From the NCBI GenBank assembly GCA_037443365.1, contig JBBIOM010000022.1:1-32116 (forward strand): DNA of 32,116 nucleotides, read 5' to 3'. The notes below the pieces were generated by a model, which made no database searches, was not told where the DNA came from, and saw only the letters and a program-made list of their open reading frames with translations. This stretch comes from Armatimonadota bacterium. Lineage in GTDB: Bacteria > Sysuimicrobiota > Sysuimicrobiia > Sysuimicrobiales > Humicultoraceae. Every line of letters begins with the position of its first letter. The stretch's first letter is position 1. Shown one piece after another: positions 6,108 to 24,329 of this stretch. The position numbers and the translations under genes are program-made.

Positions 6108-6968
6108 ATGGAGCGCGCGCTGGCCGACAGGGACCGGGCCAACCGGATGTTCGACGCCTACGGGGCGCTGCTGACCGAGCGGCAGCGGCGCCTGCTGCGG
6201 CGCTACTATCAGGACGACCTGTCGCTCGGCGAGATCGCCTCACTGATGCGCGTGAGCCGCCAGGCCGTGCACGACGGCCTGCGCAGGGCCCTGGCGGCCA
6301 TGGAGCGTCTGGAGGGAGCGCTGGGGCTGGCGGAGCGAGGTGACCACTACTCCACGAGTGCGCCGCGCTCGAAGCCGCGTGCGCGGGAGCTTCGGGTCGA
6401 GCTGCGGGGCCGGACGTGGACCTTCCAGGCCGCATCCGGCGTCTTCGCGCACCGCCGGTTCGACGCCGGGACGCGACTGCTCGTGGAGGCGATGCAGGTG
6501 CGCCCCCGGGACCGCATCCTGGACCTGGGATGCGGCTACGGCGCGATCGGCCTGGTGGCCGCATCGCTCGCGCCCCTTGGCCGTGCCTGGCTCGTGGATC
6601 TGAACCAGCGCGCGGCGCGCCTGGCGTGCGCCAACGCCGCGGTGGCTGGGCTCACCAACGCCTGCGTGCTTGTGGGCGACGGCGCGGCCCCGTTTCAGGA
6701 CGCCTGTTTCGAAGTGGTGCTCACCAACCCGCCGATCAGGGCCGGGCGGCGGGTTGTCGTGGAGTTCATCGAGGGAGCGTGGCGGGTGCTCAGGCCCAAC
6801 GGTCGGTTCTACATGGTGGCGCGCACCGCGCAGGGTGCGCGCACGCTCGCGAAACTCGTGGCCGAGAAGTTCGGTGAAGCGCGCGAGGTGCGTACTTCCG
6901 GGGGGTACCGCGTCTACAAGGCGCGGCGCAGGCGCGCCGCCCCTCATGAGGTGACCGGCGGTGTTTGA
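6108..6968 (+). CDS. Fusion of a YlxM (UPF0122) HTH domain and an RsmC/YbxB-like class I SAM methyltransferase
   Basis: aa ~1-77 match YlxM (FDAYGALLTERQ..YYQDDLSLGEIA..VSRQAVHD). The remainder matches the small MTase domain (DHY, SGVF..RFDAGTRLL, LDLGCGYG, TNPPIRAG). Occupies the ylxM position between ftsY and ffh. Confidence 0.9.
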   Translation: MERALADRDRANRMFDAYGALLTERQRRLLRRYYQDDLSLGEIASLMRVSRQAVHDGLRRALAAMERLEGALGLAERGDHYSTSAPRSKPRARELRVELRGRTWTFQAASGVFAHRRFDAGTRLLVEAMQVRPRDRILDLGCGYGAIGLVAASLAPLGRAWLVDLNQRAARLACANAAVAGLTNACVLVGDGAAPFQDACFEVVLTNPPIRAGRRVVVEFIEGAWRVLRPNGRFYMVARTAQGARTLAKLVAEKFGEAREVRTSGGYRVYKARRRRAAPHEVTGGV

Positions 6969-8280: not shown

Positions 8281-8558
8281 AGATCCGACTCATGCGAACC
8301 GGAGCCAAGCACCAACCGTCGTACCGGGTCGTGGTGGCCGACTCGCGTACCCCCAGGGGCGGCAGGTACATCGAGGCGCTCGGGCACTACAACCCCAGGA
8401 CCGAGCCGTCCACCATTCAGATTGACGAGACGAAGGTGCGTTCCTGGCTCGAGCGGGGCGCCCGGCCCTCGGACGCGGCCCGCGTGCTGCTGGTCAAGAC
8501 CGGCATCCTCCCGCGCTGGGAGGCCGATCGGTCGGGCGGCGAAGAGCGCCCGGGGTAG
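8271..8558 (+). CDS. rpsP: 30S ribosomal protein S16
   Basis: [47 protein letters not shown] inside the ffh 3' end. Confidence 0.97.
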
Positions 8559-8564
8559 AGCGTC

Positions 8565-8825
8565 ATGCCGGGGGCTGATCTGAGGGCGTTGGTCGAGTAC
8601 CTGGTCCGGGGATTGGTGGACGACCCAGGGGCGGTCGGCGTGAGAGCGGCCGAGCGCGACCGTCTGGTGACGATCGAGATCAGGGTGGCCGCAGGCGACC
8701 TGGGCAAGGTCATCGGCCGCCGCGGACGCATCGTGGGGGCGATTCGCACCCTCGCCCGGGCCGCGGGCGCATCCGACGGTCGGCGCGTTGTGGTGGAGAT
8801 CGCGTCGCAGTCTAGCCGGGAGTAG
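8565..8825 (+). CDS. khpA: KH-domain RNA-binding protein KhpA (YlqC)
   Basis: LVEYLVRGLVDDP, DLGKVIGRRGR (KH GxxG loop), AIRTL; canonical position after rpsP. Confidence 0.92.
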   Translation: MPGADLRALVEYLVRGLVDDPGAVGVRAAERDRLVTIEIRVAAGDLGKVIGRRGRIVGAIRTLARAAGASDGRRVVVEIASQSSRE

Positions 8826-8836
8826 CGGAGGCGGGC

Positions 8837-9241
8837 ATGGGGATAACCGTTGTTCGACCCGTAATCGTGAAGGCCATAGTCACGGAGGCGTTCAAGAAGC
8901 AGTACATGAGCGAGATCGAGGACACCGTTCGGCGTCTCGACGCCGTGATCTCGCAAATCGACACGCAGATCCGGCGCTCCGAGCTGGAGCGCCAGGTCAG
9001 CCCGCAGTCGCGCGCGATCCGTCAGCAGCTCGAGGTGGAGCGTTCGCGGCAGGAAGCCGCGCGCATGGAGCTCGCCGCGCGCATGAAGGAGGCCGAGGGG
9101 CTCGAGCTCCAGTCCGAGTTCTCTCAGGGCACCCTGGAGAGCATTGTCGAGCTGGGCGTCGGGGACAACTTCTTCACGCGCATGGCGCGGGCCGAGGTAG
9201 TGATCAAGGATGGGATCGTCATCGAGATCCGCGAGGACTGA
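8837..9241 (+). CDS. ylqD: YlqD-family protein
   Basis: RPVIVKAIVTEAFK, central coiled coil, [23 protein letters not shown]; located between khpA and rimM. Confidence 0.88.
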   Translation: MGITVVRPVIVKAIVTEAFKKQYMSEIEDTVRRLDAVISQIDTQIRRSELERQVSPQSRAIRQQLEVERSRQEAARMELAARMKEAEGLELQSEFSQGTLESIVELGVGDNFFTRMARAEVVIKDGIVIEIRED

Positions 9242-9779
9242 AGCCGGGTCGCCCGACCCGGCCGGCCTTGTCACGGTGGGACGCGTGGTCAGGCCGCACG
9301 GGCTGCGCGGTGAGGTGAGGGTGCGCCTGGAGACGGACTTCCCGGAGCGCTTCGCCCACCTCGGGGAGGCATACCTTGTGCGGGCGGGACAGGCCGAGGC
9401 GATCGAGATCACCGGCAGCCGGCCGCACAAGGACGGCCTGCTGGTGACCATCCGGGGATTCGACGACCTGGAGGCGGCCGAACGACTGCGCGGCGCGGAC
9501 ATCGCGGTGCCCCGCGACGCCGTCGTGCCGCTCGGGGAAGGCGCCTACTACGTCTTCGAGATGGTGGGCCTGCGCGTGCGGACCGAGGAGGGACGGCGGC
9601 TTGGCACCCTCTGCGAGGTGCTGCGCGGTCCGGCCAACGACGTCTACGTCGTCCGGGGCGAAGGGGGCGAGATCCTGCTGCCCGCCACGCGCGAGGTTGT
9701 GCGTCGGGTGGATCGGGCCTCGGGCGAGATGATCGTCGCCATCCTGCCCGGTATGGAGGAGCAGGAAGTTGCGCGTTGA
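9210..9779 (+). CDS. rimM: Ribosome maturation factor RimM
   Basis: [44 protein letters not shown]; start overlaps ylqD and is uncertain. Confidence 0.95.
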
Positions 9780-11579: not shown

Positions 11580-12208
11580 TGCGGCCGGCCGCGCTCTTCA
11601 CCAGGGAGCGCGAGGCCTGGAGGAAGGGAATCACGCCGGTGGCCGGCCTGGACGAGGCCGGACGCGGGCCGCTGGCAGGCCCGGTCGTCGCGGCTGCCGT
11701 GATCTTCCCGGGCGTGCTCGATATCCCCAACCTACGCGACTCCAAGCTGCTCACACCCCGGATGCGCGAGGAGGTGTACGCTGCGATCCAGGCCTCGGGC
11801 GCGCTCGTCGGCGTGGGCATGGCCGATGTTGGTGAGATCGACCGGCTCAACATCCTGGGCGCGACCAAGCTGGCGTGGGTCCGGGCCGTTGGGTCGCTCC
11901 GCCTGCCTGTGGCGCTGCTGCTCGTTGATGGCAACGTGAGGGCCCCTCTTGCGCTGCCCCAGGCCACGCTGGTCCGGGGCGACCAGACCTGCGCCTCGAT
12001 CGCCGCGGCCTCGGTGGTGGCGAAGGTGACGCGCGACCGCATGATGGTCGAACTGGACCGAAGGTACCCGGGCTACGGGTTCGCCAGGCACAAGGGCTAC
12101 GCGACCGCGGCACACCTGGCCGCGCTGCGGACGCACGGCCCCTCGCCCGAACACCGGCGCGCGTTCCTGCCAGAGGATCTGCGCCGGGCGCGGCCATTCC
12201 CCATGTAA
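11579..12208 (+). CDS. rnhB: Ribonuclease HII
   Basis: GLDEAGRGPLAGPVVAAAV, DSK, VDG, SIAAASVVAKVTRDRMM, HKGY; ATG overlaps the lepB stop. Confidence 0.96.
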   Translation: MRPAALFTREREAWRKGITPVAGLDEAGRGPLAGPVVAAAVIFPGVLDIPNLRDSKLLTPRMREEVYAAIQASGALVGVGMADVGEIDRLNILGATKLAWVRAVGSLRLPVALLLVDGNVRAPLALPQATLVRGDQTCASIAAASVVAKVTRDRMMVELDRRYPGYGFARHKGYATAAHLAALRTHGPSPEHRRAFLPEDLRRARPFPM

Positions 12209-12240
12209 GACGCGGATCGGCCGGCGATAACAGGAGCAGG

Positions 12241-12606
12241 ATGACCACGTCCAACCGTCGGGCGCTGGGAGCGACGGGCGAGGCCGCGGCCGCTGCTTGG
12301 TTGGAGACACGCGGGTACCGCGTGCTGGCGCGCAATGTTCGGTCGCGGGCCGGGGAGATCGACCTCGTAGCGCGACAGGCCGACCTGGTCGTGTTCGTCG
12401 AGGTGAAGAGCCGCACCGGAGAGGCGTTCGGGCATCCCTCCGAGGCGATCGTCGGCCGCAAGCAGCGGCGCATCGCACGGCTGGCCGACGCCTTCCTGCA
12501 GGCTCATCGTTTGCACCGGTGCGCGGTGCGGTTTGACGCGATGGCGGTCCGGCTGGGCAGGGACGGCGAGGTGCTTGAGATCGAGCACATCCCTGACGCG
12601 TTCTGA
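12241..12606 (+). CDS. yraN: YraN (UPF0102) family putative endonuclease
   Basis: GATGEAAAAAWL..GYRVLARN..GEIDLVA..VFVEVKSR..RFD..HIPDAF. Confidence 0.93.
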   Translation: MTTSNRRALGATGEAAAAAWLETRGYRVLARNVRSRAGEIDLVARQADLVVFVEVKSRTGEAFGHPSEAIVGRKQRRIARLADAFLQAHRLHRCAVRFDAMAVRLGRDGEVLEIEHIPDAF

Positions 12607-12636
12607 CAACGCCAGGACTGCTCCCGCCGACCCGAA

Positions 12637-14085
12637 TCAGGACCCGAAGGCAGCGGGCCGGGAATCGCGGGGAGCCGAGAGGATGTGCCCGAGGAGCCGC
12701 CCCGCGGCCTCGGCGCCCTGCCGCACGCAGTCCGGGATGCCGATCCCCCGATAGCCGGCCCCGGCCAGGGCGAGCCCCGGGACCTCCCGGAGAGCGGCGT
12801 CAATGGCCGTCAGCCGCTCCGGGTGTCCTGCCGGGTACTGCGGCATGGCCCCAAACCACCGGGCCACGCGCGCGAACAGCGGCGATGCTTCGATCCCCAT
12901 GGTCGTCCGGAGGTCGGCCCGGACTGCGGCGATCAGCCGGTCGTCGTCTTCTCCGACGATCTCCTCACGGCCCGCCCTGCCGAGGTAGCAGCGGATCAGC
13001 GCGATCTCCGGGGGCGCCCTGTGCGGCCACTTGGACGATGCCCAGGTGCACGCGGTGATCGCGAGCGTGCTCCCGCGCGCGACCACGAACCCGTGCCCGT
13101 CAAGGGGATGGGCGAGATCGGCGCGGCGGAAGGCGAGCGTGACAGCCGCGGTCGAGACGTACGGGATCAGCCGCAGGGTGGCGGAGACCGCGGGGGCGAT
13201 CGGCTCCAGCAGGCCTGCGCTGATGTAGGCCGGGGTGGCGAGCAGGAGGGCGTCGGCGTCCAGCGCCGATCCTTGGTCCAGCGCTACCAGGAACCCTGCA
13301 CCCGGCCCGCCGCGGGGTGTTATGCGCCGCACCGTGCGGCCCGTCAGCATCACGGTGCCTTCGAGCGCCGTCTCTAGTGCCGCGACCATCTCGCCGAGCC
13401 CACCGATCAGGCTGAGGAACATGGGAGCGGGGCCGCGCTGGTGGACCTCGCGCGCCCGGCGCCTGCCAAGGGCCGCCAGGATGAGGCTGCGGTGTCCGGC
13501 TTCCCATTCCGCGAGGAGCGGGAACGTGGCCCGCACGCTCAGGGCGTCGGGGTCGCCCGCGTAGATGCCTCCGAGCAGCGGGCCGGCCAGGCGGTCTACC
13601 ACAGCATCGCCCAGCCTCCGCCGGAGCATCCCACCGATGGTCTCATCGCCCGGGCTCCGTCTGCGAGGCAGGACGAGGTCGGCGGCGGCCCGCAGTTTCT
13701 CCACCGGCGACAGCAGGCGGGTGCGCACCATCGGTCCGATCCGGGTGGGGATGCCGAACGCCATGCCTTCAGGCAGTGGATGGAGACGTCCCCTGTGCCA
13801 GACGTAGACCGCCCGGCCAGGCTGCGTGGGAACGATCCGTTCGCCGAGCCCGACCCGCCGGCACAGATCTGCCGCCCACGGCTTGGTGGAGAGGAACGAG
13901 TCCGGGCCGTTCTCGACGAGACAGCCATTGATCCGCTCGGTGAGGAGTTTGCCACCCAGCCGCGCGTCGGACTCGACGAGGGTACAGCGCACGCCCGCGG
14001 CCCGGGCGCGCGAATCGGTCACCAGGGCATGGGCGGCGGCCAGGCCCGTGATGCCGCCCCCGACGATGACAAGGTGCGGGCTCAC
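12637..14085 (-). CDS. hemY: HemY-type (copro/proto)porphyrinogen oxidase (CgoX-like)
   Basis: FAD motif IVGGGITG, RLGG, ENGPDSFL, PLLGGIYAGD, SSKWPHRAP, MPQY, GIGIPDCV; GTG 14085 overlaps the hemH stop (GTGA). Confidence 0.94.
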   Translation of the reverse strand: MSPHLVIVGGGITGLAAAHALVTDSRARAAGVRCTLVESDARLGGKLLTERINGCLVENGPDSFLSTKPWAADLCRRVGLGERIVPTQPGRAVYVWHRGRLHPLPEGMAFGIPTRIGPMVRTRLLSPVEKLRAAADLVLPRRRSPGDETIGGMLRRRLGDAVVDRLAGPLLGGIYAGDPDALSVRATFPLLAEWEAGHRSLILAALGRRRAREVHQRGPAPMFLSLIGGLGEMVAALETALEGTVMLTGRTVRRITPRGGPGAGFLVALDQGSALDADALLLATPAYISAGLLEPIAPAVSATLRLIPYVSTAAVTLAFRRADLAHPLDGHGFVVARGSTLAITACTWASSKWPHRAPPEIALIRCYLGRAGREEIVGEDDDRLIAAVRADLRTTMGIEASPLFARVARWFGAMPQYPAGHPERLTAIDAALREVPGLALAGAGYRGIGIPDCVRQGAEAAGRLLGHILSAPRDSRPAAFGS

Positions 14086-15008
14086 GTCCGGCGCCCCACG
14101 AGATCGGCCAGGGCGTCCAGCAGGCGCGGGTGGTCGTTGAGCGACGCGGCGCGCACGAACCGCATCCCCAGGCACGCGCACAGATCTCTGAGCTCGATGT
14201 CGAGGTCGTATAGCACTTCCAGGTGGTCGGCCACGAAGCCGATGGGGCAGGAGACCACGCCGCGCCCCCCGGCCGCGTGAAGGCGCCGCACCTCATCGCG
14301 CACGTCCGGGCCGAGCCACGGCTCGGATGTGCGGCCGGCGCTCTGGTAGGCGAGCGTCCAGCGCTGGACACCCACCCGCTTGGCGACCTCCGCCGCGGTC
14401 CGGCGCAGTTCGTCCGGGTAGGGGTCGCCCCAGGTGAGAACACGCTCCGGCAGGCTGTGGGCCGAGAAGACGACAGGCGTCTCTGCGCGGATCGCGCTCG
14501 GCAACTCCGCCAGCGCGGCCGCGAGTCGTTCGGCGACCGCGTCGAGGAACGCCGGGTGCTCGCCCCAGCGCTCCACGTACGCCATCGGGAACGGCCGCGG
14601 CAGCGCCCGCCGCGCCTCCTCCGCGTGCTCGAAGTAGGTGCCTGTGCTCATCCGCGAGTAGTGGGGCGCCATCACGAGGCCGACGCCCTCGGCGATGCCG
14701 TCGTCGGCCATCCGGCGGACGACGTCACCGATGAACGGCGCCGCGTGCTTCATGCTCACGTAGACGCGCCACCGACCCGGCGCGATGGCCTCGAGCCGCG
14801 TCTGGAGCCCGTCGGCCTGGCGGCGGGTCAGCTCGTCAAGCGGCGACCAGCCAATCGCCTCGTACCGGGCAGCAACCTCCGTCAAGAGGTCCGCGGACGG
14901 CGAGCGGCCGCGCCGGATTCGCGTGTAGTAGGCCTCCAGATCCTCGGGGCCGGTCGGGCTGCCGTGAGCCATCAGCAGGACCCCGATCGAGGGGAGGGCT
15001 CTGCTCAT
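14082..15008 (-). CDS. hemH: Ferrochelatase, Firmicute/coproporphyrin (CpfC)-type
   Basis: LLMAHGSP..YYTRIRRGR..RYEAIG, APHYS, FSAHSLP (catalytic His), YQSAGRTSEPWLGPDV, GFVADHLEVLYDLD (catalytic Glu). Confidence 0.95.
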   Translation of the reverse strand: MSRALPSIGVLLMAHGSPTGPEDLEAYYTRIRRGRSPSADLLTEVAARYEAIGWSPLDELTRRQADGLQTRLEAIAPGRWRVYVSMKHAAPFIGDVVRRMADDGIAEGVGLVMAPHYSRMSTGTYFEHAEEARRALPRPFPMAYVERWGEHPAFLDAVAERLAAALAELPSAIRAETPVVFSAHSLPERVLTWGDPYPDELRRTAAEVAKRVGVQRWTLAYQSAGRTSEPWLGPDVRDEVRRLHAAGGRGVVSCPIGFVADHLEVLYDLDIELRDLCACLGMRFVRAASLNDHPRLLDALADLVGRRT

Positions 15009-16039
15009 GCGCGCCTGCCCTTGGCAGGGGTGTGCTCGTGGACCAGCTCCACGAGGCGCCGCAGGTGGTCCGGGGGCGTCTGCGGCAGCACGCCGTGTCC
15101 CAGGTTGAAGATGTGCCCAGGCCGCCCGCCAGCCTGATCCAGGACATCGCGCGCGGCCTCTGCGGCGACCTCAAACGGTGCGAGAAGCGCGCGGGGATCG
15201 AGGTTCCCCTGGATCCCGGCGCTGCCGATTCGCGCCCAGGCGTCGGAAAGACCGATCCGCCAGTCCACGCCGATGACGTCCCCACCGGATTGCGCCATGA
15301 GGGGAAGCAGCCCGGCGGTGCCGGTGCCGAAGTGAATCACCGGCACCCCGCAGGGGATCAGTTCGCCGAAGAGCCTCCTCATGTGCGGCGAGACCGCGCG
15401 CTCGTAGTCGCGCGGCGCCAGTTCGCCCACCCATGAATCGAATACCTGCAGGGCCTGCGCGCCAGCATCCACCTGGGCCCTCAGGTACGCGATCGTCGCA
15501 TCGGTCAGGCGGCCCATGAGCCGGTCCCAGAGCGCGGGCGCGCCCAACATCATCGCCTTGGTCTGGGGCAGGTCGCGGGAGCCCCGCCCCTCGATCATGT
15601 AGCTGGCCAGCGTGAAAGGCGCGCCCGCGAAGCCGATCAACGGCACGCGGGCCTGCTCCCGCACGAGGCGGATTGCCTCGAGGACGAATCGCAGGTCGCG
15701 CTGTGGGTCCAGGGGGCGCAGCGCGTCTACCTGGGCCTCGGTGCGTATCGGCGCCCCGATCACCGGTCCCGTGCCCTCCACGATCTCGAACGGGACGCCC
15801 ATGCCAACAAGCGGCAGCATTATGTCGGCGAACAGGATGGCCGCATCCACGCCGAGCTGATCCACCGGCAGCAGCGTGACCTGGGCGCAGAGCTCCGGCG
15901 TGCGGACGAGGTCCAGCATCGAGTAGCGAGCCCGCAGCGCGCGGTACTCGCTCTGGTAGCGGCCGGCCTGGCGCATGAACCACACCGGCGTGCGGTCCGT
16001 GGGCTCGCCGCGGCAGGCGCGCAGGAACCGATCGTTCAT
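15005..16039 (-). CDS. hemE: Uroporphyrinogen decarboxylase
   Basis: PVWFMRQAGRY, DAAILFADI, GFAGAPFTLASY, QVFDSW, QGNLDP, HIFNLGHG; ATG 16039 overlaps the upstream stop (ATGA). Confidence 0.97.
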   Translation of the reverse strand: MNDRFLRACRGEPTDRTPVWFMRQAGRYQSEYRALRARYSMLDLVRTPELCAQVTLLPVDQLGVDAAILFADIMLPLVGMGVPFEIVEGTGPVIGAPIRTEAQVDALRPLDPQRDLRFVLEAIRLVREQARVPLIGFAGAPFTLASYMIEGRGSRDLPQTKAMMLGAPALWDRLMGRLTDATIAYLRAQVDAGAQALQVFDSWVGELAPRDYERAVSPHMRRLFGELIPCGVPVIHFGTGTAGLLPLMAQSGGDVIGVDWRIGLSDAWARIGSAGIQGNLDPRALLAPFEVAAEAARDVLDQAGGRPGHIFNLGHGVLPQTPPDHLRRLVELVHEHTPAKGRRA

Positions 16040-17157
16040 GCGGGCTCGTAGGGGCACAGGGGATCCTCGGCCAGGACGTCACCGGTGTGCGCGAACGCCC
16101 GGGCCCTCGATCCTCCGCAGATCACCCTGTACTCGCAGCGCCCGCATCTGCCATGCAGCCGCGACGTGTCGCGCAGCGCGGTGAAGAGTGGGTTTGAGCG
16201 GTAGATCTCAGGCAGGGAGCCGCTCCGCACGTTGCCCGCGGACAGCGGGAGGAACCCCGACGGTGCCACCTCGCCGGTCCTTGAGATGAACATGATGCCG
16301 TTGCCGTCACGGATGCCGAACCCCCGTCCGACGCTGCTGCGTTGCACCTGGGCGCCATCCATCCCCGCGGCCTGCATCCGCGCCAGCGCCACGCGCCGGT
16401 AGTGCGGGGCCTCGGTCGTCTTGATCGCGAAGGGCGCCCGCTCGCTCTGGTCGTAGATCCAGTCCATCAGGCATTCCGCGTCATGGGGCGCCATCTCGCG
16501 AAGGGAGGTCCCGCGCCCCACCGAGATCAGGAAGAACAGGCTCCATCTCTCCACGGGCAGCGACGCCAGCAGATCGTAGATAGCCGGCAGGTCGGGTGCG
16601 GTCTCCGAAGTCACGAGCGTGTTGATCTGGAGCGGGATTCCTGCCGCGGTGACCCAATCCACGGCCCGCATCGTCAGATCGAAGCAACCCGGCACGCCGC
16701 GGAACGCGTCGTGACGATCGGGGTTCGAGCCGTCGAGGCTCAGCGACATGCTCTGGATGCCGGCCTCGCGCAGGCGCTCGACGGCTTCCGCGGTCAGCAG
16801 GCTCGTGCCGCTGGGCGCCAGCGAGACCCCGATTCCCAGGCGCCCGGCTTCCTCTATCAGGTCGTGCAGGTCGGCCCTCTTGAGCGGATCGCCGCCGGTG
16901 AGCACCAAGTGCGGCAGCGGGCGGCCGAACTTCGGCACCTGCCGCAGCAGCGCGCAGGCCTCGCCGGTCGTCAGCTCGTCCGGGTCGCGATTCACCATCG
17001 CCTCCGCGCGGCAGTGGCGGCAGGCCAGATCGCAGGCCCGGGTGAGCTCCCAGTAGATGAGCATGGGTGCCCTGGCGTACTCGTGTCCAGCCTGCGCCGC
17101 ACGCACCGCCTCGTATGACGGCTCGGCCGCGCCAGGCCGGATGCGCGAGGGATGCAT
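16036..17157 (-). CDS. Radical SAM protein with partial SPASM domain, AhbD/NirJ-like (resembles the TIGR04053 family)
   Basis: WELTRACDLACRHCRA (CxxxCxxC), LTGGDPL, SLSLDG, C-terminal CGRCEYRVICGGSRARA..EDPLC; start ATG 17157 or GTG 17160, coupled to the hemL stop. Confidence 0.88.
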   Translation of the reverse strand: MHPSRIRPGAAEPSYEAVRAAQAGHEYARAPMLIYWELTRACDLACRHCRAEAMVNRDPDELTTGEACALLRQVPKFGRPLPHLVLTGGDPLKRADLHDLIEEAGRLGIGVSLAPSGTSLLTAEAVERLREAGIQSMSLSLDGSNPDRHDAFRGVPGCFDLTMRAVDWVTAAGIPLQINTLVTSETAPDLPAIYDLLASLPVERWSLFFLISVGRGTSLREMAPHDAECLMDWIYDQSERAPFAIKTTEAPHYRRVALARMQAAGMDGAQVQRSSVGRGFGIRDGNGIMFISRTGEVAPSGFLPLSAGNVRSGSLPEIYRSNPLFTALRDTSRLHGRCGRCEYRVICGGSRARAFAHTGDVLAEDPLCPYEPA

Positions 17158-18473
17158 CACCGGGCCGCCTCCGCGAACGCGCCCCGCGCCGCCGCGAGCG
17201 TGCGCGCGACGTCCTCCTCGGTGTGCGAGGCCGAGACGAACCATGCCTCGAACTGCGAGGGCGGGACGAGCACTCCCTTGGAGAGCATCGCCCTGAAGAA
17301 CCGCGCGAAACGGGACGTATCGGCCGTCCTGGCCGTAGCGTAGTCGCGCGGCGGCTCCTTCGTGAAGAACACCGTCAGCATCGAGGCCACGTGGGCAACC
17401 GACGCCACGCACCCTGCCTCGGCCGCGGCCTGGGCGAGCCCCAGCGCAAGGCGCGAAGTGAGCGCGTCGAGGCGCGCGTAGAACGCCGCGTCAGCCAGGC
17501 GCCGAAGCGTCACGACCCCGGCCGTCATGGCCAGCGGATTCCCGGAGAGGGTCCCTGCCTGGTAGACCGGGCCCAGCGGCGCCACGGTCTCGATCACATC
17601 ACGCCGCCCGCCGTAGGCACCCACAGGCAGCCCTCCGCCGATGATCTTGCCCAGACAGACGAGGTCGGGCCTGATGCCGAAGCGCGCCTGCGCGCCCCCC
17701 TGTCCAAGCCGAAATCCGGTGATGACCTCGTCGAAGATCAACAGCGCGCCCTCGCGAGAAGTGATCTCGCGCAGCCCCTGCAGGAACCCGCCTGCCGGCA
17801 TCACCACGCCCATGTTGGCCGCCACGGGCTCGACGATCACCGCCGCGATTGCCCCGGGGTTGGCCGCGAACAGCGCCGTTGTGGCGTCCAGGTCGTTGTA
17901 CTCCGCCACCAGCGTGTCGGCCACCGCGGGGGCCGGGACGCCGGCGCTGCTGGGCAGCCCGAAGGTGGCCACGCCGGAGCCTGCCTGGGCCAGCAGCGGA
18001 TCGGCGTGGCCGTGGTAGCAGCCGGCGAACTTGATGATCTTGTCACGCCCCACAAACCCCCGCGCCGCGCGGATCGCGCTCATCGAGGCCTCGGTCCCGG
18101 AACTGACGAAGCGCATGCGCTCCATCGCCGGGACCGCCCCTCGGATGAGGCGGGCCAGTTCGACCTCCTCGGACGTGGGCATCCCGTAGCTGGTTCCTGC
18201 CGCGGCCCGCTGTCCGATGGCTGCCACCACCTGCGGGTCGGCATGCCCCAGCACAAGCGCCCCCCACGAGCCCACGTAGTCGAGGTACTTGCGGCCGTCG
18301 AGGTCGGTCAGATACGCGCCGCGCGCGGAACGCACGACGATAGGGCTGCCGCCGACCGCGCGAAACGCCCGCACCGGGCTGTTCACCCCTCCGGGGAACA
18401 GACCCTCGGCCTCCTCGAAGACGGCCGCGCCCAGCGGCCCCGCGGATGCAAGGTTGTCCATGCGCTGCCTCAC
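17157..18473 (-). CDS. hemL: Glutamate-1-semialdehyde 2,1-aminomutase (alternative start ATG 18461)
   Basis: PGGVNSPVRAF, DYVGSWG, SGTEA, GCYHGH, FDEVITGFR, GKIIGGG (PLP Lys), YQAGTLSGNP, PSQFE. Confidence 0.97.
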   Translation of the reverse strand: MRQRMDNLASAGPLGAAVFEEAEGLFPGGVNSPVRAFRAVGGSPIVVRSARGAYLTDLDGRKYLDYVGSWGALVLGHADPQVVAAIGQRAAAGTSYGMPTSEEVELARLIRGAVPAMERMRFVSSGTEASMSAIRAARGFVGRDKIIKFAGCYHGHADPLLAQAGSGVATFGLPSSAGVPAPAVADTLVAEYNDLDATTALFAANPGAIAAVIVEPVAANMGVVMPAGGFLQGLREITSREGALLIFDEVITGFRLGQGGAQARFGIRPDLVCLGKIIGGGLPVGAYGGRRDVIETVAPLGPVYQAGTLSGNPLAMTAGVVTLRRLADAAFYARLDALTSRLALGLAQAAAEAGCVASVAHVASMLTVFFTKEPPRDYATARTADTSRFARFFRAMLSKGVLVPPSQFEAWFVSASHTEEDVARTLAAARGAFAEAAR

Positions 18474-19738
18474 GCCTCCCCAGGTTCCTCGGAGTCCACC
18501 GCCAGTTCGAAGAGCTCGGCCGCCAGCTCCAGCGTGCGCGCGTCGTTGCGGGCCGCGGATGCGCGCAGGCGCAGGATCGGCGCCTGGAGCAGCCTGCGCG
18601 CCGTGGCCCTGGCTACCACGCGCACCGCGGCGTGCTGCGCTTCGCTCAGGCCGGCCAGGCGCGTGCGCGCGCGGGCAATCTCGCCTTCCGCGACGGCCTC
18701 CGCCCTGCGCTGCAACGCCGCGATCAGTGGAACCGCCCTACGGGACGCCATCCATTCCTCGAACCCTGCCAGGGCCGCCTCCACGATCGCTTCGGCGCGC
18801 GCCAGATCCTCGGGTGCAACCTCTCCCAGGACCGGCTCGCCCTGGAACTGGTCCAGCGCGTGGAGCGTGACTCCCGGCAGCGCGGCTACCGCCGCGTCCA
18901 CGCCGCGCGGAATGCCCAGGTCGATCACCAGCAGCGGGCGGTCCCGGTCCGCTCCGATGGCATCCGGCGACACGAGCGGCCCGTCGGCGCCCACGCAGAC
19001 GACCATCAGGTCAACGCTGCTGCTCATCTCCGCGATCGCCTCGAGGGAAATCGCCCGGGCCCCGGAGGGGGCCCCCAACTCGCGTGCCGCCTCCAGGGTG
19101 CGGTTGGCCACGGCCACGATCCTGGCCCCGCATTCTGCCAGGAGCCTCACAACGATCGATGCGACCTCCCCGGCACCTACCACGAGCGTGGCCCTTCCGT
19201 CCAGTCGGCCCAGCGCGCGCCTGGCGAGCAGTACCGCGGCCCGAGGGATCGAAGGCGCGCCGCGCGACACGCGGGTTTCGCGGCGCACGCGGCGCCCGGT
19301 GGCTATGGACAGCGCGACCAGGCGGTTGAGCACGGGTCCGGTATGACGGCCCTGGCGCGCGAGATCGAAGGCACGTTTCACCTGCCCGAGTATCTGCTCC
19401 TCGCCCAGCACCATCGAGTCGAGCCCGGAGGCGACCCGCAGTATGTGCCGCGCGGCCGTCCTCCCGCTACGCTCGTAGAGCGAGGCCGCAAACGCCTCGG
19501 TCGGGACTCCGCGCGCGGCGGCGAGCGTCCGGGCCACAGCGGCAGTCGGGGGCGCGCCGGGCGTGATCAGGTACGCCTCGGTGCGGTTGCAGGTGGATAT
19601 CAACATCCCCTCAGAGATCCCCTCGTCTCGGCGCAGCGCCTCGAGAACGGGCAACAGGTCCGCTTCCGCGAGGGCCACGCGCTCGCGCACCTCTACAGGC
19701 GCGGTCCTGTGACTGAGCCCGATCGCCGACAGGATCAT
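18470..19738 (-). CDS. hemA: Glutamyl-tRNA reductase
   Basis: GLSHRTAPVEVRE, STCNRTE (catalytic Cys), SGLDSMVLGEEQILGQVK, NADPH motif VGAGE, NRT. Confidence 0.96.
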   Translation of the reverse strand: MILSAIGLSHRTAPVEVRERVALAEADLLPVLEALRRDEGISEGMLISTCNRTEAYLITPGAPPTAAVARTLAAARGVPTEAFAASLYERSGRTAARHILRVASGLDSMVLGEEQILGQVKRAFDLARQGRHTGPVLNRLVALSIATGRRVRRETRVSRGAPSIPRAAVLLARRALGRLDGRATLVVGAGEVASIVVRLLAECGARIVAVANRTLEAARELGAPSGARAISLEAIAEMSSSVDLMVVCVGADGPLVSPDAIGADRDRPLLVIDLGIPRGVDAAVAALPGVTLHALDQFQGEPVLGEVAPEDLARAEAIVEAALAGFEEWMASRRAVPLIAALQRRAEAVAEGEIARARTRLAGLSEAQHAAVRVVARATARRLLQAPILRLRASAARNDARTLELAAELFELAVDSEEPGEA

Positions 19739-20751
19739 CGCTGGGCGAGGCCCCCCGCGTCTTCCCTCAACCAGCGCGCAACGTCGGCCGCGGCGTAGGT
19801 GATTACGAGATCGGCTCCTGCGCGGCGAATGGCGACCAGCACCTCGCTCATCGCGCGGCGCTCCTCCAACCAGCCCAGTTGGGCCGCGGCCTTGAGCATC
19901 GCGTACTCGCCGCTCACGTGGTAGGCGGCGATCGGAAGCGATACCGCCTCACGGGCGGCGCGTATGACGTCGAGATAGGCGTGGGCGGGCTTGATCATGA
20001 TGATGTCGGCGCCCTCTTTCGCGTCCAGCACAACCTCGCGCAGGGCCTCGCGCACGTTGGCCGGGTCCATCTGGTAGGCGCGCCGGTCGCCGAACTGCGG
20101 GGACGACCCCGCCGCCTCGCGGAACGGGCCATAGAAGGCCGAGGCGTACTTTGCCGCGTAGGCCATGATGCCCACCTGGCCGAAGCCGCCCTCGTCGAGC
20201 GCCTCGCGTATGGCGGCGACCTGCCCGTCCATCATGGCGCTGGGCGCCACCACGTGCGCGCCCGCGGCCGCGTGCGACACCGCGGTGCGGGCCAGCAGGC
20301 CCAACGTCGCGTCGTTGTCCACCCCGTCACCGCACACAACCCCGCAGTGCCCGTGGTCGGTGTAGGCGCACAGGCAGACGTCGGTCATGACAACGGGCAC
20401 GCGGTTCCCCTGTCGGAGCAGGCGCACGGCCTGCTGGATGACGCCGTCGTCCGCGTAGGCCCCGCTGCCGGAGGGGTCCTTCGCGTCGGGAACGCCGAAC
20501 AGCAGCACGGCCTGGATGCCAAGATCCGCCAGGGCGTCCACCTCGCGTGCGAGCTCGTCGGGAGAGAAGCGCGTCTGGCCGGGGAGCGACGCGATAGGTT
20601 CCCTGACACGCGTGCCGGGCCGAACGAACAGGGGCGCGATGAGCATCTCCGGGTGCAGCCGGGCTTCTGCCACGAGCCGCCGGAGCGCATCCGTGGCGCG
20701 CAGCCGGCGCGGACGCACGCGCAGATCAGCGCGCGGTGATTCCCCTGACAT
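19735..20751 (-). CDS. hemB: Porphobilinogen synthase (ALA dehydratase), Zn-type
   Basis: RPRRLR, DVCLCAYTDHGHCG (Zn ligands), APSAMMDG, KYASAFYGPFREA, YQMDP, MIKPA, YHVSGEYAM; ATG 20751 fits the AAAGGAG spacing better than 20757. Confidence 0.97.
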   Translation of the reverse strand: MSGESPRADLRVRPRRLRATDALRRLVAEARLHPEMLIAPLFVRPGTRVREPIASLPGQTRFSPDELAREVDALADLGIQAVLLFGVPDAKDPSGSGAYADDGVIQQAVRLLRQGNRVPVVMTDVCLCAYTDHGHCGVVCGDGVDNDATLGLLARTAVSHAAAGAHVVAPSAMMDGQVAAIREALDEGGFGQVGIMAYAAKYASAFYGPFREAAGSSPQFGDRRAYQMDPANVREALREVVLDAKEGADIIMIKPAHAYLDVIRAAREAVSLPIAAYHVSGEYAMLKAAAQLGWLEERRAMSEVLVAIRRAGADLVITYAAADVARWLREDAGGLAQR

Positions 20752-21556
20752 CGCCATCTCCTTTCATCCCGGCGCCTCGCCCTCGGCTGTGGGCGACCAG
20801 GGCGGCGATCAGCCCATCCGCCGTGTGCTCGCCGGCCACGAAGGCCGGCTCGAATCCCTCTTGCGTCACCGCTGCGGCCGTGACCGGGCCTATGCAGCCG
20901 ATCACCATCGCCCGAAGGCCACGGCGCTCCTCTCCGAGCAGGGCCACCAGGCCGCGCACCGTCGAGGCGCTCGTGAAGAGCACGGTGTCCACCCCCCGTG
21001 ATCCGATAAGGCGGCACGCCTCGGCGCGCGATCGCCTCGGCGCCTCGACCGTCCTGTAGGCCGTCACCTCGTCCACGATCGCGCCCAGGGCAGTCAGCGC
21101 CCTGCGCAGCCCTGGGCCGGCGGCATCCGTGCGCGGCAGCAGCACGCGCGCCCCGGCGACATCGCCCAAAGCGTCGGCGATCGCCTGGGTCAGGTATCTG
21201 GATGGAGTCACGATGTCCGGGACCCCGGCCCGCTTGAGGCCTCTTGCGGTGTACGGCCCTGTCGCCGCCCACCGCGGTCGGGCCCTGCCGGCAAGGTCTA
21301 CACCCAGGGCCCTCGCCCGTGATGCGAGGGCGCGCGCGCCGTTCGCGCTCGTCACCACGACCCAATCGAACCTGTCGATCTCCCGCAGGGCCGTATCCAG
21401 CGGTCCGCCCGCGCGCGGTCCGGCAACGGCTATCGTTGGCACCACCACCGGCTGCGCTCCAAGCCGGATGAGCCGGGCGCACATGCGGCGGCTCTGGCGC
21501 CGCGGACGCGTGACCAGGATGCGCCGGCCGGCCAGCGGCAGCGCCTTCGTACTCAC
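20726..21556 (-). CDS. hemD: Uroporphyrinogen-III synthase
   Basis: LAGRRILVTRP, DWVVVTSANG, GPYTA, AYRT, FTSASTV, CIGPVTA; GTG 21556 overlaps the hemC stop. Confidence 0.93.
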   Translation of the reverse strand: MSTKALPLAGRRILVTRPRRQSRRMCARLIRLGAQPVVVPTIAVAGPRAGGPLDTALREIDRFDWVVVTSANGARALASRARALGVDLAGRARPRWAATGPYTARGLKRAGVPDIVTPSRYLTQAIADALGDVAGARVLLPRTDAAGPGLRRALTALGAIVDEVTAYRTVEAPRRSRAEACRLIGSRGVDTVLFTSASTVRGLVALLGEERRGLRAMVIGCIGPVTAAAVTQEGFEPAFVAGEHTADGLIAALVAHSRGRGAGMKGDGDVRGITAR

Positions 21557-22461
21557 CCGGCCGCCTCCCGCAGGAGCGCGCTGGCTCCCTCGGCCAGCAG
21601 TCGAGTCGCCAGACGCGCACCCAGCTCCGCCGGCGCCGCGACTCGGCCCTCGGCTCCGGCCCGCACCATGCTCTCCCCGGATGGGGCCAGCACCGCGCCC
21701 TGGAGCACCAGGCGCGCGCCGCCGGCGACAGCCAGCGCGGCGATCGGGCGCTGGCATCCCCCGCCCAGGCCGGCCAGGAAGGCGCGCTCCGCCTCCACGG
21801 CGGCGCGGGTTGGCCAGTCGTCCAGCGCAGAGAGTTGCTCCTCCAGGCAGTCCTGGCCAGCACGGCACTGAATCACCACAGCGCCCTGGCCGACCGCCGG
21901 GAGCATCACAGAAGGATCCAGGCGCTCCGCGGCGTGAGCCGCGATGCCAAGCCGCTCCAGGCCGGCTGATGCGATCACGAGCGCGTCCACCTCGCCGGAC
22001 TCCAGCTTGCGGATTCGGGTGTCCACGTTGCCTCTCGTGTCGCGCACCACCAGGCGCGGATTCGCGGCCAGCAGGAACGCCCGGCGTCGCGGGCTCCCGG
22101 TGCCCACCACGCTGCCCGGGGCAAGGCCGCGCAGCCCGGCGCCGTCCCTCGTCATCAGCGCGTCCCTGGGATCCCCGCGCGACGTGAACGCCACCAGCGT
22201 CAAGCCCGGCGTGGCTTCCACCGGAAGGTCCTTGGCGCTGTGCACTGCCAGATCAACCCTTCCTTCCAGCAGCGCGGTTTCGATCTCCCGCACGAACGCG
22301 CCCACGCCGAGGCCGGCCGCAGGACGATCGGGATGCCGGTCCCCCTGCGTGCGGACCGTGACGACCTCGCATCTGTGGCCTTCGGCCTCCAGCGCAGCGA
22401 CCACGGGCGCGGTCTGGGCCATGGCGAGCGCGCTGGCGCGCGTGCCGATGCGCAGGTTCAC
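21553..22461 (-). CDS. hemC: Hydroxymethylbilane synthase (porphobilinogen deaminase)
   Basis: RIGTRASALAMAQ, AVHSAKDLP, GTGSPRR, RGNVDTR, PAVGQG, GGGCQRP (cofactor Cys). Confidence 0.97.
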   Translation of the reverse strand: MNLRIGTRASALAMAQTAPVVAALEAEGHRCEVVTVRTQGDRHPDRPAAGLGVGAFVREIETALLEGRVDLAVHSAKDLPVEATPGLTLVAFTSRGDPRDALMTRDGAGLRGLAPGSVVGTGSPRRRAFLLAANPRLVVRDTRGNVDTRIRKLESGEVDALVIASAGLERLGIAAHAAERLDPSVMLPAVGQGAVVIQCRAGQDCLEEQLSALDDWPTRAAVEAERAFLAGLGGGCQRPIAALAVAGGARLVLQGAVLAPSGESMVRAGAEGRVAAPAELGARLATRLLAEGASALLREAAG

Positions 22462-23117
22462 TGGAGCATGCGCCTTCGCGCATCCCGTCCTTGCGTGCGC
22501 TCCTCATCCCACGCGCGCAGCACCGACATGAAGACCGCGTCGAGGAGGTCGCTTACCTCTACGAGCGTTCGCGCCTGATCCTCATCCAGCATGCCGCCGC
22601 GCCCCCTGGGCTCGGTCACCGTCTTGAGCACGAGGTGCCGGAAGAAGCCGAAGGCCTCGGCGACCTCCACCGGCCCCAGGCCCGCCCTTCGCAGTTGGCG
22701 CCCGTAGTTGCGGCTGTGCTCCTCCATCTTCCTGCGAACGGATCTTCGCGATCGAGGGTCCGCCGCATACCGGGCGAGCGCGGTGAACAGGTGCCGGCCG
22801 TGCGCGCGCGCCCGAGCCCGCAGCGGCTCACCGAGCCCGGCGAACCAGGGCCGCGCCGCCAGCACCCGCGCCGGCCTTCTGGCCAGCAGCTTGGCGCACC
22901 GGCGCTCCAGGAGCCGCCCCAGATCCTCCACGCGGGGAACCTCCTGGTGCATCAGCGCGCGCAGGTCGCCTTCCTGAAACCGCCTGTGCCCGCCGGGAGT
23001 CCGGAAGGTCCGCACCCTTCCGGTGTCGGCCCAGTGCCGCAGCGTTGCCTCGTCCACTCCCAGACGGGTTGCGGCCTGGCCGAGCGGCAGCCAGCGCTCA
23101 ACGCGTTGCTTGCCCAT
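22458..23117 (-). CDS. BldC/excisionase-like (MerR-fold) HTH regulator with a C-terminal all-helical, probably globin-like domain
   Basis: WLPLGQAATRLGVDEATLRHWADTG..RTPGGHRRF..DLRAL; SD GGAGGG before ATG 23117; stop overlaps the hemC start (GTGA). The C-terminal fold is inferred from helix pattern only. Confidence 0.85.
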   Translation of the reverse strand: MGKQRVERWLPLGQAATRLGVDEATLRHWADTGRVRTFRTPGGHRRFQEGDLRALMHQEVPRVEDLGRLLERRCAKLLARRPARVLAARPWFAGLGEPLRARARAHGRHLFTALARYAADPRSRRSVRRKMEEHSRNYGRQLRRAGLGPVEVAEAFGFFRHLVLKTVTEPRGRGGMLDEDQARTLVEVSDLLDAVFMSVLRAWDEERTQGRDARRRMLQ

Positions 23118-23139
23118 CGTGGCCCTCCGGGCTGGCTTT

Positions 23140-23172
23140 CTATGCAAGCCTACGCAATCCTACACTAATCTA
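23140..23172 (-). repeat. Four imperfect direct repeats with exact 10-bp period
   Basis: Minus strand reads TAGATTAGTG / TAGGATTGCG / TAGGCTTGCA / TAG(AAAGCCA); on the + strand CTA starts at 23140, 23150, 23160 and 23170. Confidence 0.7.
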
Positions 23173-23195
23173 GCGGCACCAGGGGGTGTTGCCAA
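23167..23195 (-). promoter_or_regulatory. Putative sigma70-type promoter of the heme operon
   Basis: Minus strand TTGGCA (23195-23190), 17 nt spacer, TAGATT (23172-23167). Confidence 0.65.
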
Positions 23196-23336
23196 GGGGG
23201 CAGCCGGGCGCAGTACCGGCCATCACGGCCAGGGGAACCGTCTGGCCCGAGTAGGAGTTTTCCCGGGCGGGTGCGAACTAACAGGGCGCGCGCCGCAGAT
23301 CGGGCGACGCACGGGTGTCTATTGGAGGGATCCCGC

Positions 23337-24329
23337 ATGACGGTCTATCGCACGCTTGTGATTGTGACCGTGCTTGTCCTGGCCCTCGTAGGGACGTCAG
23401 TGCAGGCCCAGCCGCGGCCGGGCTGGCCGCGGAGCGTGACAATTGGCTCCGCCACGATCGGCGGAGTCTACTTCGTGGTGGCTGGCGGCTACGCGCGGGT
23501 AATCGGCGAGAAGATGGGGATGGCGGCCACCAACCGGGTGACCGGAGGCCCGGTGCAGAACGTGCAGCTCGTGCAGACCAAGGAGATCGAGCTGGGCATG
23601 ACCACGACCGGCCCGGCCTACGAGGGGCTCAACGGCCTCGGGGACTTCAAGGGAAGGAAGACCGACGCGATCCGCGTTGCGTTCCCGATGTACACCTCTT
23701 ACGCGCACTGGATCGTCAACGCCGACTCGCCCATCCGGTCGGTGGCCGACCTCACTGGCAGGGTTGTGAGCCTCGGACCCCGCGGCGGCTCCGCGGAGTT
23801 CGTGGGCGACCGGGTGATCGAGATGTTCGGCATCAAGCCGCGGCGCGTGGTCTACCTTGCATTCGCCGATGGCGCCACGGCGCTGCGCGACGGCACCGTG
23901 GACGCCTGCTTCGGCGTGATCGGGCTGCCGGTTCCGGCCTGGGTAGAGGCCGCGCTCACCCGGCCGATGCGGTTCCTCGGGTTCACAAGGGAGCAGGTCG
24001 AGACCCTTACCGAGAAGTTTCCCTATCTGGCGCGCACCGCCATCCGCGCCGGCGTCTACCGCGGCCAGGACCACGTCATCCCCACCGTGCAGATGTGGAA
24101 CGCGGCGGTCGTGCACAAGGACATGCCCGAGGACTTCGTCTACACGCTCACCAAGACGATCTTCGACAACCGGGAGTTCCTGGCGACAGTGCACGCCACG
24201 TCACACGAGACGATGCCGGTGAACGTCTTCTACATCAAGCTCCCGTTGCACCCTGGCGCCGTGAGGTACTTCCGCGAGCAGGGAGTGCGGATCACGGATG
24301 AGCAGATCCCGCCCGAGATGAAGCGGTAG
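23337..24329 (+). CDS. TAXI-family TRAP transporter substrate-binding protein
   Basis: Sec signal peptide ending VQA; IGSATIGGVYF, VTGGPVQN, IRSVADLTGRVVSLGPRGGS, PLHPGAVRYFRE; SD GGAGGG before ATG 23337. Confidence 0.93.
   Translation: MTVYRTLVIVTVLVLALVGTSVQAQPRPGWPRSVTIGSATIGGVYFVVAGGYARVIGEKMGMAATNRVTGGPVQNVQLVQTKEIELGMTTTGPAYEGLNGLGDFKGRKTDAIRVAFPMYTSYAHWIVNADSPIRSVADLTGRVVSLGPRGGSAEFVGDRVIEMFGIKPRRVVYLAFADGATALRDGTVDACFGVIGLPVPAWVEAALTRPMRFLGFTREQVETLTEKFPYLARTAIRAGVYRGQDHVIPTVQMWNAAVVHKDMPEDFVYTLTKTIFDNREFLATVHATSHETMPVNVFYIKLPLHPGAVRYFREQGVRITDEQIPPEMKR

Follow-up and report, generated by a model that had tools for sequence, protein, structure and literature searches.

The locus described here raises the question of which enzyme completes heme b in a bacterium whose heme operon runs to coproheme and contains no gene of coproheme decarboxylase ChdC (HemQ). 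The window, i.e., the whole analyzed stretch of 32,116 nucleotides with a G+C content of about 71%, represents positions 1 to 32,116 of contig JBBIOM010000022.1 from the assembly GCA_037443365.1 of an Armatimonadota bacterium. It contains the ten-gene operon HTH-hemC-D-B-A-L-rSAM-hemE-H-Y on the minus strand (12637-23147), in which HTH is the gene of a helix-turn-helix protein and rSAM is the gene of a radical S-adenosylmethionine (SAM) protein, P0001. An earlier note on this DNA had listed the genes hemA, hemL, hemB, hemC, hemD, hemE, hemY and hemH, which Pfam and NCBIfam models assign in the same way, and had proposed a hybrid route hemE-hemY-hemH-rSAM with a peroxide-independent last step. 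Comparative genomics supports this route: the family membership of P0001 by hidden Markov models (HMM), the structure of the operon, the genome- and genus-wide absence of alternatives, including the loss of chdC in the whole genus, and the synteny, with chdC adjacent to rSAM in relatives, were all observed directly. P0001 is probably (with a probability of about 0.8) an oxygen- and peroxide-independent coproheme decarboxylase, an AhbD-type heme b synthase acting at the end of the HemE-HemY-HemH route.

Six-frame searches were performed against the whole assembly (2.22 Mb, 69 contigs, 97.7% complete) and 14 control genomes, and positive controls matched in the expected model genomes in every search. 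The Chlor_dismutase domain of ChdC (PF06778), the HemN_C domain of HemN and of the common heme chaperone HemW (PF06969), HemF, the AsnC_trans_reg2 domain of AhbA and AhbB, and CgoN (DUF1444), the oxygen-independent partner for the HemY step, were not found in the assembly. A second gene of the TIGR04053, AhbC or AhbD type was not found in it either; the two other matches in the genome scored only 30-39 bits. The sole TP_methylase gene of the assembly is rsmI, so uroporphyrinogen methyltransferase is absent. The siroheme route was rejected, since neither this enzyme nor an AhbA/B domain is encoded. The absences of hemQ (chdC), hemN, hemF, ahbAB and uroporphyrinogen methyltransferase, noted earlier for the operon, therefore hold for the whole genome.

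Demand for heme is indicated by two Ccm-type cytochrome c assembly genes and by a CydA-like/cytochrome c fusion. The fusion protein (G000:C54, L034:820-2202, minus strand, 460 aa), the single PF01654 match of the genome, consists of a C-terminal cytochrome c domain preceded by part of a cytochrome bd subunit I domain (58 bits, profile positions 5-220 of 418). No other oxidase-like gene was found in the genome; the fusion protein, being divergent and having no NCBIfam match, was not accepted as a proven cytochrome bd oxidase. Catalase was not found in the source genome.

The distribution of the genes was analyzed in 94 species genomes from 31 genera of the phylum, including eight genomes (73-98% complete) of the genus to which the window belongs. 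Genes of the TIGR04053 family (E <= 1e-60) are present in 53 of the 94 genomes and 19 of the 31 genera, including all eight genomes of the window genus. ChdC (PF06778) is encoded in 80 genomes and 30 genera; of all genera, only the window genus lacks it (0/8), ChdC being present in 30/30 of the others. Heme-copper oxidase subunit I (COX1, PF00115) was found in 83 genomes and 29 genera, and HemN_C (PF06969, E <= 1e-5) in six genomes and three genera; both are absent from all eight genomes of the window genus. Genome by genome, rSAM and ChdC occur together in 44 cases and ChdC alone in 36, while rSAM alone is characteristic of nine genomes, namely, the eight of the window genus and G084 (72% complete); five genomes (G011, G040, G045, G048 and G087) contain neither. 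Two genomes flagged as unpublished, G017 and G025, have ChdC and COX1 and lack rSAM; without them the counts are 78/92 for ChdC, 81/92 for COX1 and 53/92 for rSAM, and the conclusions are unaffected.

The absence of COX1 from the genus and of catalase from the source genome fits the loss of a peroxide-dependent enzyme. In the accessible part of the paper naming the phylum of the closest labelled relatives, aerobic respiration is described for all lineages and heme is not mentioned (PMC11604079); the loss of COX1 in the window genus is an exception to this described aerobic respiration. In another family of the phylum (L029:10267-16274), a TIGR04053 gene is located outside the hem operon, just 3' of a COX2-COX1-COX3 cluster, from which it is separated by one unknown open reading frame (ORF) of 238 aa. 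By coordinates, the same placement at the oxidase cluster was found in G071, G081, G082, G083, G086 and G091.

Synteny was analyzed by tblastn with the window's own proteins. The order HTH-hemC-D-B-A-L-rSAM-hemE-H-Y is shared by the window and six loci of the genus type (L026, L027 and L033 from genomes of the genus, and L035, L036 and L040 found as relatives), which are flanked, where covered, by a TAXI transporter gene on one side and yraN and the RNase HII gene on the other. A locus of the sister genus with identical flanks (L023) has the order HTH-hemC-D-B-chdC-rSAM-hemE-H-Y. The orders hemA-hemC-D-B-chdC-rSAM-hemL-hemE-H-Y (L022 and L024) and hemA-L-C-D-B-chdC-rSAM-hemE-H-Y (L025) were found in other relatives. 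In the window genus, hemA and hemL fill the slot occupied by chdC in the sister genus. Among the seven mapped loci, all five that cover this slot (G000, L026, L027, L033 and L040) contain hemA-hemL there as contiguous sequence, and tblastn revealed no trace of chdC in the operon of the window genus.

Of the 44 genomes having both genes, 17 (G004-G009, G012-G014, G020, G038, G039, G042, G047, G050, G052 and G053) carry chdC, by match coordinates, immediately 5' of rSAM and in the same orientation, tblastn mapping agreeing in four of the 17. A search for related loci yielded 29, of which 23 came from taxa outside the phylum. Genes hem were found within the fetched flanks in seven of these 23, from metagenome-assembled genomes of Anaerolineae/Anaerolineales (L044, L048, L050, L051 and L055) and Actinomycetes (L041 and L049). 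Gene chdC is directly 5' of rSAM in L049 and L050, and L048 has an operon without chdC, hemC-D-B-rSAM-hemA-L-E-H-Y. The 16 other outside loci, from Gemmatimonadota, Methylomirabilia, Halobacteria, Planctomycetota and other taxa, showed no hem neighbour by tblastn, some of them being short and three only 32% identical.

Among NCBIfam models, P0001 matches TIGR04053 best, with 466 bits (463.5 bits in the genome search) at a cut-off of 395. The second-best family is that of AhbD, heme b synthase (TIGR04545), at 324.6-325.5 bits, below the cut-off of 500. The models of NirJ2 (199 bits, cut-off 500), NirJ of heme d1 biosynthesis (175.9 bits, cut-off 515) and AhbC (156 bits, cut-off 650) follow, all below their cut-offs, and no HemN-family model is among the 25 families listed of the 46 matched. 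The HMM comparison suggested in the earlier note thus placed TIGR04053 first and AhbD next, ahead of NirJ2, NirJ and AhbC. In Pfam, P0001 is represented by Radical_SAM and a weak SPASM match (20.3 bits, cut-off 21.5), with no match to Chlor_dismutase.

P0001 contains two cysteine motifs, CX3CX2C (C42, C46 and C49) and CX2CX5CX20C (C338, C341, C347 and C368). An alignment of 23 sequences shows no variation at any of the seven cysteines or at E249 and S350; position 300 is occupied by Ser in most of the sequences and by Ala in a few. The motifs TTEAP, PSGFLP and CGGSRAR are common to P0001 and homologues of the TIGR04053 family. P0001 has CGGS rather than CGGC, no cysteines at the positions of auxiliary cluster I (AuxI) and, accordingly, not the full eight-cysteine SPASM pattern. 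In the accessible text of Fix et al. 2023 (PMC10452713), two types of AhbD are distinguished: the first, of methanogens and sulfate reducers, has the full SPASM domain with eight cysteines and two auxiliary clusters, and the second, of non-methanogenic archaea, has only CX2CX5CX20-38C, with Glu, Ser and Ser at the positions of C223, C274 and C324 of Methanosarcina barkeri. By a constant offset of 26, these positions correspond to E249, S300 and S350 of P0001, the mapping being based on the published numbering and an aligned haloarchaeal homologue, which has the same three residues, rather than on direct alignment with the M. barkeri protein.

Because its cysteine pattern and E249, S300 and S350 correspond to the second type, P0001 is predicted to be an AhbD of the type with auxiliary cluster II (AuxII) only, with room for one auxiliary cluster. 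The earlier designation of the protein as AhbD-like is justified insofar as AhbD is its second-best family, and should be narrowed to the AuxII-only TIGR04053 type, as distinct from the AhbD of sulfate reducers and methanogens, which has the full SPASM domain. With the 23-sequence alignment as input, AlphaFold2 produced a model with a mean predicted local distance difference test score (pLDDT) of 80.2 and a predicted template modeling score (pTM) of 0.80. The nearest solved folds are those of the SPASM/Twitch radical SAM enzymes PqqE, SuiB, SkfB, BlsE and anSME; no structure of AhbD is among the structural matches listed.

When 1.84 billion cluster representatives were searched, 1048 proteins related to P0001 were found at E <= 1e-30. 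Among the best 150 of the 1048, 104 proteins have CX2CX5C with no fourth cysteine two residues on (nearly all with Ser, CGGS; S-type), 27 have the fourth cysteine (CGGC; C-type), and 19 are fragments without the motif. For the HMM scan, 67 of the best 150 were picked by hand as full-length rows carrying both cysteine motifs. TIGR04053 was the top model for 52/52 scanned proteins of the S-type; for the 15 scanned proteins of the C-type, the top model was TIGR04545 in 12 cases, TIGR04053 in two and NirJ2 in one. A quick unrooted IQ-TREE analysis of 80 rows (the 67 scanned proteins, 11/120 homologues, the haloarchaeal homologue and P0001) placed 65 S-type and 15 C-type proteins on either side of one branch, with a support of 98 in the Shimodaira–Hasegawa-like approximate likelihood ratio test. 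P0001 is 58-81% identical to many homologues carrying IMG family labels, namely, "radical SAM protein, BA_1875 family" and "AdoMet-dependent heme synthase". Nine representatives related to P0001 (P0137, P0218, P0222, P0224, P0232, P0241, P0253, P0262 and P0268) reach 666-773 aa, roughly double the usual length, which suggests tandem fusions of radical SAM enzymes, such as those of an AhbC-AhbD-like kind.

The link to archaea is provided by the haloarchaeal homologue (L058), which is 49% identical to P0001 and shows the same pattern of scores, 474 bits with TIGR04053 and 330 bits with TIGR04545. Among the 14 control genomes, these two models match only Haloferax volcanii and Methanosarcina acetivorans, with one genome each over the cut-off. 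The simplest reading is that the AhbD of this methanogen is a member of TIGR04545 and that of this haloarchaeon a member of TIGR04053. According to the accessible part of the work on H. volcanii (PMC5746218), Haloarchaea make coproheme from siroheme; deletion of ahbD impairs or abolishes only anaerobic growth, with protoheme fully restoring growth by dimethyl sulfoxide respiration and only partly restoring denitrifying growth; and deletion of pitA, the homologue of chdC, impairs aerobic growth. The pair ahbD and pitA is a genetic precedent for an aerobic and an anaerobic enzyme acting on coproheme.

We infer the substrate, product and mechanism of P0001 from homology and genomic context. HemE would produce coproporphyrinogen III, which HemY (CgoX) would oxidize to coproporphyrin III, and iron insertion by HemH (CpfC) would give coproheme. 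The radical SAM enzyme would then convert the propionates of rings A and B to vinyl groups by two oxidative decarboxylations, giving heme b. The [4Fe-4S] cluster at CX3CX2C would cleave SAM reductively, the 5'-deoxyadenosyl radical would take hydrogen from the propionate with release of CO2, and the leftover electron would exit via the single C-terminal AuxII cluster at CX2CX5CX20C. In the ancestors of the lineage, the rSAM product may have been the anaerobic partner of ChdC, with the two genes side by side, and in the window genus chdC would have been lost together with the heme-copper oxidases. Since chdC has been lost in the genus, the rSAM enzyme is proposed to be the sole route to heme b there.

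A wider picture can be drawn tentatively, with somewhat less than even chances of being right: the genus might possess a coproporphyrin-dependent heme pathway operating without O2 or H2O2, with an AhbD-type enzyme with one auxiliary cluster as the sole coproheme decarboxylase and with electrons from HemY/CgoX passing to a non-oxygen acceptor. The replacement of chdC by hemA-hemL and the loss of heme-copper oxidases would then record a facultative lineage turned obligate anaerobe. If true, the genus would be a natural knock-out, in which a bacterial enzyme of the S-type is sufficient in vivo.

Several points weigh against P0001 being a coproheme decarboxylase. Its score with TIGR04545 is below the cut-off, and it has no counterpart of the AuxI cluster of the characterized M. 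barkeri AhbD, in which, according to the accessible text of PMC10452713, the monovinyl intermediate builds up when AuxI is perturbed. The literature describes HemY-type oxidases as dependent on oxygen, which is odd beside an oxygen-labile radical SAM enzyme; the CgoX of Staphylococcus aureus serves aerobic and anaerobic heme synthesis alike, according to the accessible part of a 2025 review (PMC12670364). The connection with ahbD of H. volcanii is indirect, being based on the tallies in control genomes and on a different haloarchaeal homologue. The literature, as far as accessible, contains no measured activity for a bacterial member of TIGR04053, and a full-text search for this name gave no result. 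Finally, an unrecognized non-homologous decarboxylase might be encoded elsewhere in the genome.

Vacancy of the coproporphyrinogen III step might suggest another role for P0001, since HemN_C and HemF are lacking in the genome and in nearly the whole phylum: it could decarboxylate coproporphyrinogen III, as HemN (CgdH) does, with HemY and HemH acting on protoporphyrin(ogen) in a protoporphyrin-dependent route. The substrate preferences of HemY and HemH cannot be read from HMM matches. Nevertheless, this role is improbable, as the gene adjoins chdC, the product of which acts on coproheme, in 17 relatives with otherwise identical operons. Moreover, the pathway of the haloarchaeal family members includes coproheme and no coproporphyrinogen step, and AhbD, the nearest characterized family, uses coproheme.

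It is quite improbable that P0001 modifies a tetrapyrrole in some other way, resembling NirJ or AhbC or participating in heme handling, with decarboxylation performed by an unrecognized enzyme or heme taken up. NirJ, NirJ2 and AhbC are detectable relatives of P0001, and the full-SPASM clade, including NirJ2-like proteins, is one branch away from the S-type proteins, but the scores are 156-199 bits against cut-offs of 500-650, and neither a siroheme route nor a siroheme decarboxylase domain of the AhbA/B-NirD/L/G/H type is present. Besides, a nine-enzyme operon stopping at coproheme would be useless without a decarboxylase, and the gene is intact in 8/8 genomes of the genus. The third explanation, that chdC is present but was missed because of an assembly gap or a divergent copy, with rSAM being no more than a backup for anaerobic conditions, as it is in most relatives, could draw on the draft state of the assembly, with its 69 contigs, and on the coexistence of both genes in 44/94 genomes of the phylum. 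It is made very improbable by the absence of chdC from all eight genomes of the genus at 73-98% completeness, set against its presence in every one of the 30 other genera, and by the contiguous hemA-hemL sequence in the ancestral slot of all five covering loci.

Participation of AhbD-type enzymes in the last step of the coproporphyrin-dependent pathway has been considered previously. Colocalization of ahbD with hemY/hemH/hemQ was reported in a 2023 review (PMC10548856), and the accessible part of the 2025 review gives the last step of the pathway as "aerobic ChdC or anaerobic AhbD" (PMC12670364). Mingers et al. 2024 still describe the oxygen-independent enzyme of Bacillaceae as "yet unknown" (PMC10965808). 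The earlier remark that replacement of ChdC by AhbD had been proposed before, and was not wholly new, is correct in that the idea is already in print, and understates its standing, the reviews presenting it as a part of the pathway. Accordingly, P0001 is a member of a known family to which this job has already been assigned in reviews, and represents no new concept. What is distinctive here is the genus-wide and positionally exact loss of chdC, with rSAM kept and the heme-copper oxidases lost.

The anaerobic last heme step of bacteria with the coproporphyrin pathway is widely assumed to be AhbD-like, and a biochemical demonstration for a bacterial protein of the P0001 type was not found in the accessible literature. 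Most carriers of the rSAM gene keep ChdC, and the genetics there is therefore ambiguous. In all eight genomes of the window genus ChdC is lost and rSAM is kept in the hem operon, which makes P0001 a clean candidate for biochemical proof. With P0001, it could also be tested whether a single auxiliary cluster suffices for both decarboxylations.

The coordinates of the rSAM gene given in the earlier note proved right, with ATG at 17157-17155 and TGA at 16036-16038 read on the minus strand, and its coupling between hemL and hemE was confirmed by overlapping codons at both junctions: the stop codon of hemL and the start codon of rSAM have one base in common (TGATG), and the stop codon of rSAM runs into the start codon of hemE (ATGA). 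P0001 is the product of a real gene and not of a chance ORF, as follows from the matches to Radical_SAM (E 9.4e-21) and TIGR04053 (E 9.4e-140). A longer ORF of 458 aa starting from 17412 was rejected as the rSAM gene because it overlaps hemL, its homologues begin at the ATG at 17157, and its match to TIGR04053 starts from its residue 111. Stop and start codons overlap (GTGA, ATGA or TGATG) at eight of the nine junctions of the operon, including that of the HTH gene with hemC (GTGA) and that of hemH with hemY, the likely start of which is GTG at 14085. At the ninth junction, hemB starts 32 nt within hemD, with an AAAGGAG site ahead. The sole sigma-70-like site in the region 12100-23400 is located at 23195-23167, just 5' of the HTH gene.

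Table 1. Genes of the heme biosynthesis operon in the window, in order of transcription.
Gene	Product and remarks	Position	Strand	Model match
HTH	BldC/MerR-type HTH protein, 229 aa, first operon gene	22458-23147	minus	NF033787 47.5 bits (below cut-off 77); PF00376
hemC	Hydroxymethylbilane synthase	21553-22461	minus	TIGR00212 295 bits
hemD	Uroporphyrinogen-III synthase; likely start GTG overlapping hemC stop	20726-21556	minus	PF02602 174 bits
hemB	Porphobilinogen synthase; AAAGGAG before ATG	19735-20757	minus	NF006762 483 bits
hemA	Glutamyl-tRNA reductase	18470-19738	minus	TIGR01035 324 bits
hemL	Glutamate-1-semialdehyde 2,1-aminomutase	17157-18473	minus	TIGR00713 596 bits
rSAM	Radical SAM/SPASM protein P0001, 373 aa, putative coproheme decarboxylase	16036-17157	minus	TIGR04053 466 bits
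hemE	Uroporphyrinogen decarboxylase	15005-16039	minus	TIGR01464 415 bits
hemH	Ferrochelatase; best model Bacillus-type, presumed CpfC	14082-15008	minus	PF00762 268 bits; NF009095 283 bits; TIGR00109 212 bits
hemY	Flavin adenine dinucleotide (FAD) oxidase of the protoporphyrinogen/coproporphyrinogen oxidase family, presumed CgoX	12637-14085	minus	TIGR00562 287 bits (cut-off 98)

The protein encoded by the first gene of the operon has the BldC/MerR-type HTH at residues 19-68 and an uncharacterized C-terminal part, and is found at the same operon position in relatives; it could be a regulator of the heme pathway. Outside the operon, the gene at 6108-6968 on the plus strand, between ftsY and ffh, encodes a YlxM-type DNA-binding domain (residues 9-76) fused to a class I SAM methyltransferase domain of the RsmC/PrmC type. 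An ORF of 361 aa at 8417-9502, which lies between ffh and trmD and is read from the minus strand, opposite to its neighbours, has no NCBIfam match and may be spurious in this high-GC DNA.

Among known systems, P0001 is closest to the TIGR04053 family, sharing with it a score above the cut-off, the invariant cysteines and the motifs. No structural difference was found; the family name carries no function, and P0001 is the sole candidate for the last step here, whereas elsewhere in the phylum the gene coexists with chdC (44/94). The AuxII-only AhbD of archaea is similar in having CX3CX2C and CX2CX5CX20-38C, Glu/Ser/Ser and no AuxI cysteines, but archaeal coproheme is formed from siroheme via AhbABC, whereas here it would come from HemE-HemY-HemH, with no siroheme genes present. 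The AhbD proteins of Desulfovibrio vulgaris and M. barkeri (TIGR04545) likewise belong to the radical SAM enzymes, carry the AuxII motif at the C-terminus and share the proposed reaction; unlike P0001, which is below the cut-off of 500 and is predicted to have one auxiliary cluster, they contain the eight-cysteine SPASM domain with two. The partners of AhbD sensu stricto in the siroheme route, AhbA/B, AhbC and uroporphyrinogen methyltransferase, are absent from the genome encoding P0001. With ChdC/HemQ, which is absent from the source genome and its genus and is the 5' neighbour of rSAM in 17 relatives, P0001 shares the position in the pathway and the same proposed overall reaction. The folds are unrelated: ChdC belongs to Chlor_dismutase and depends on H2O2, whereas P0001 would use SAM and Fe-S clusters.

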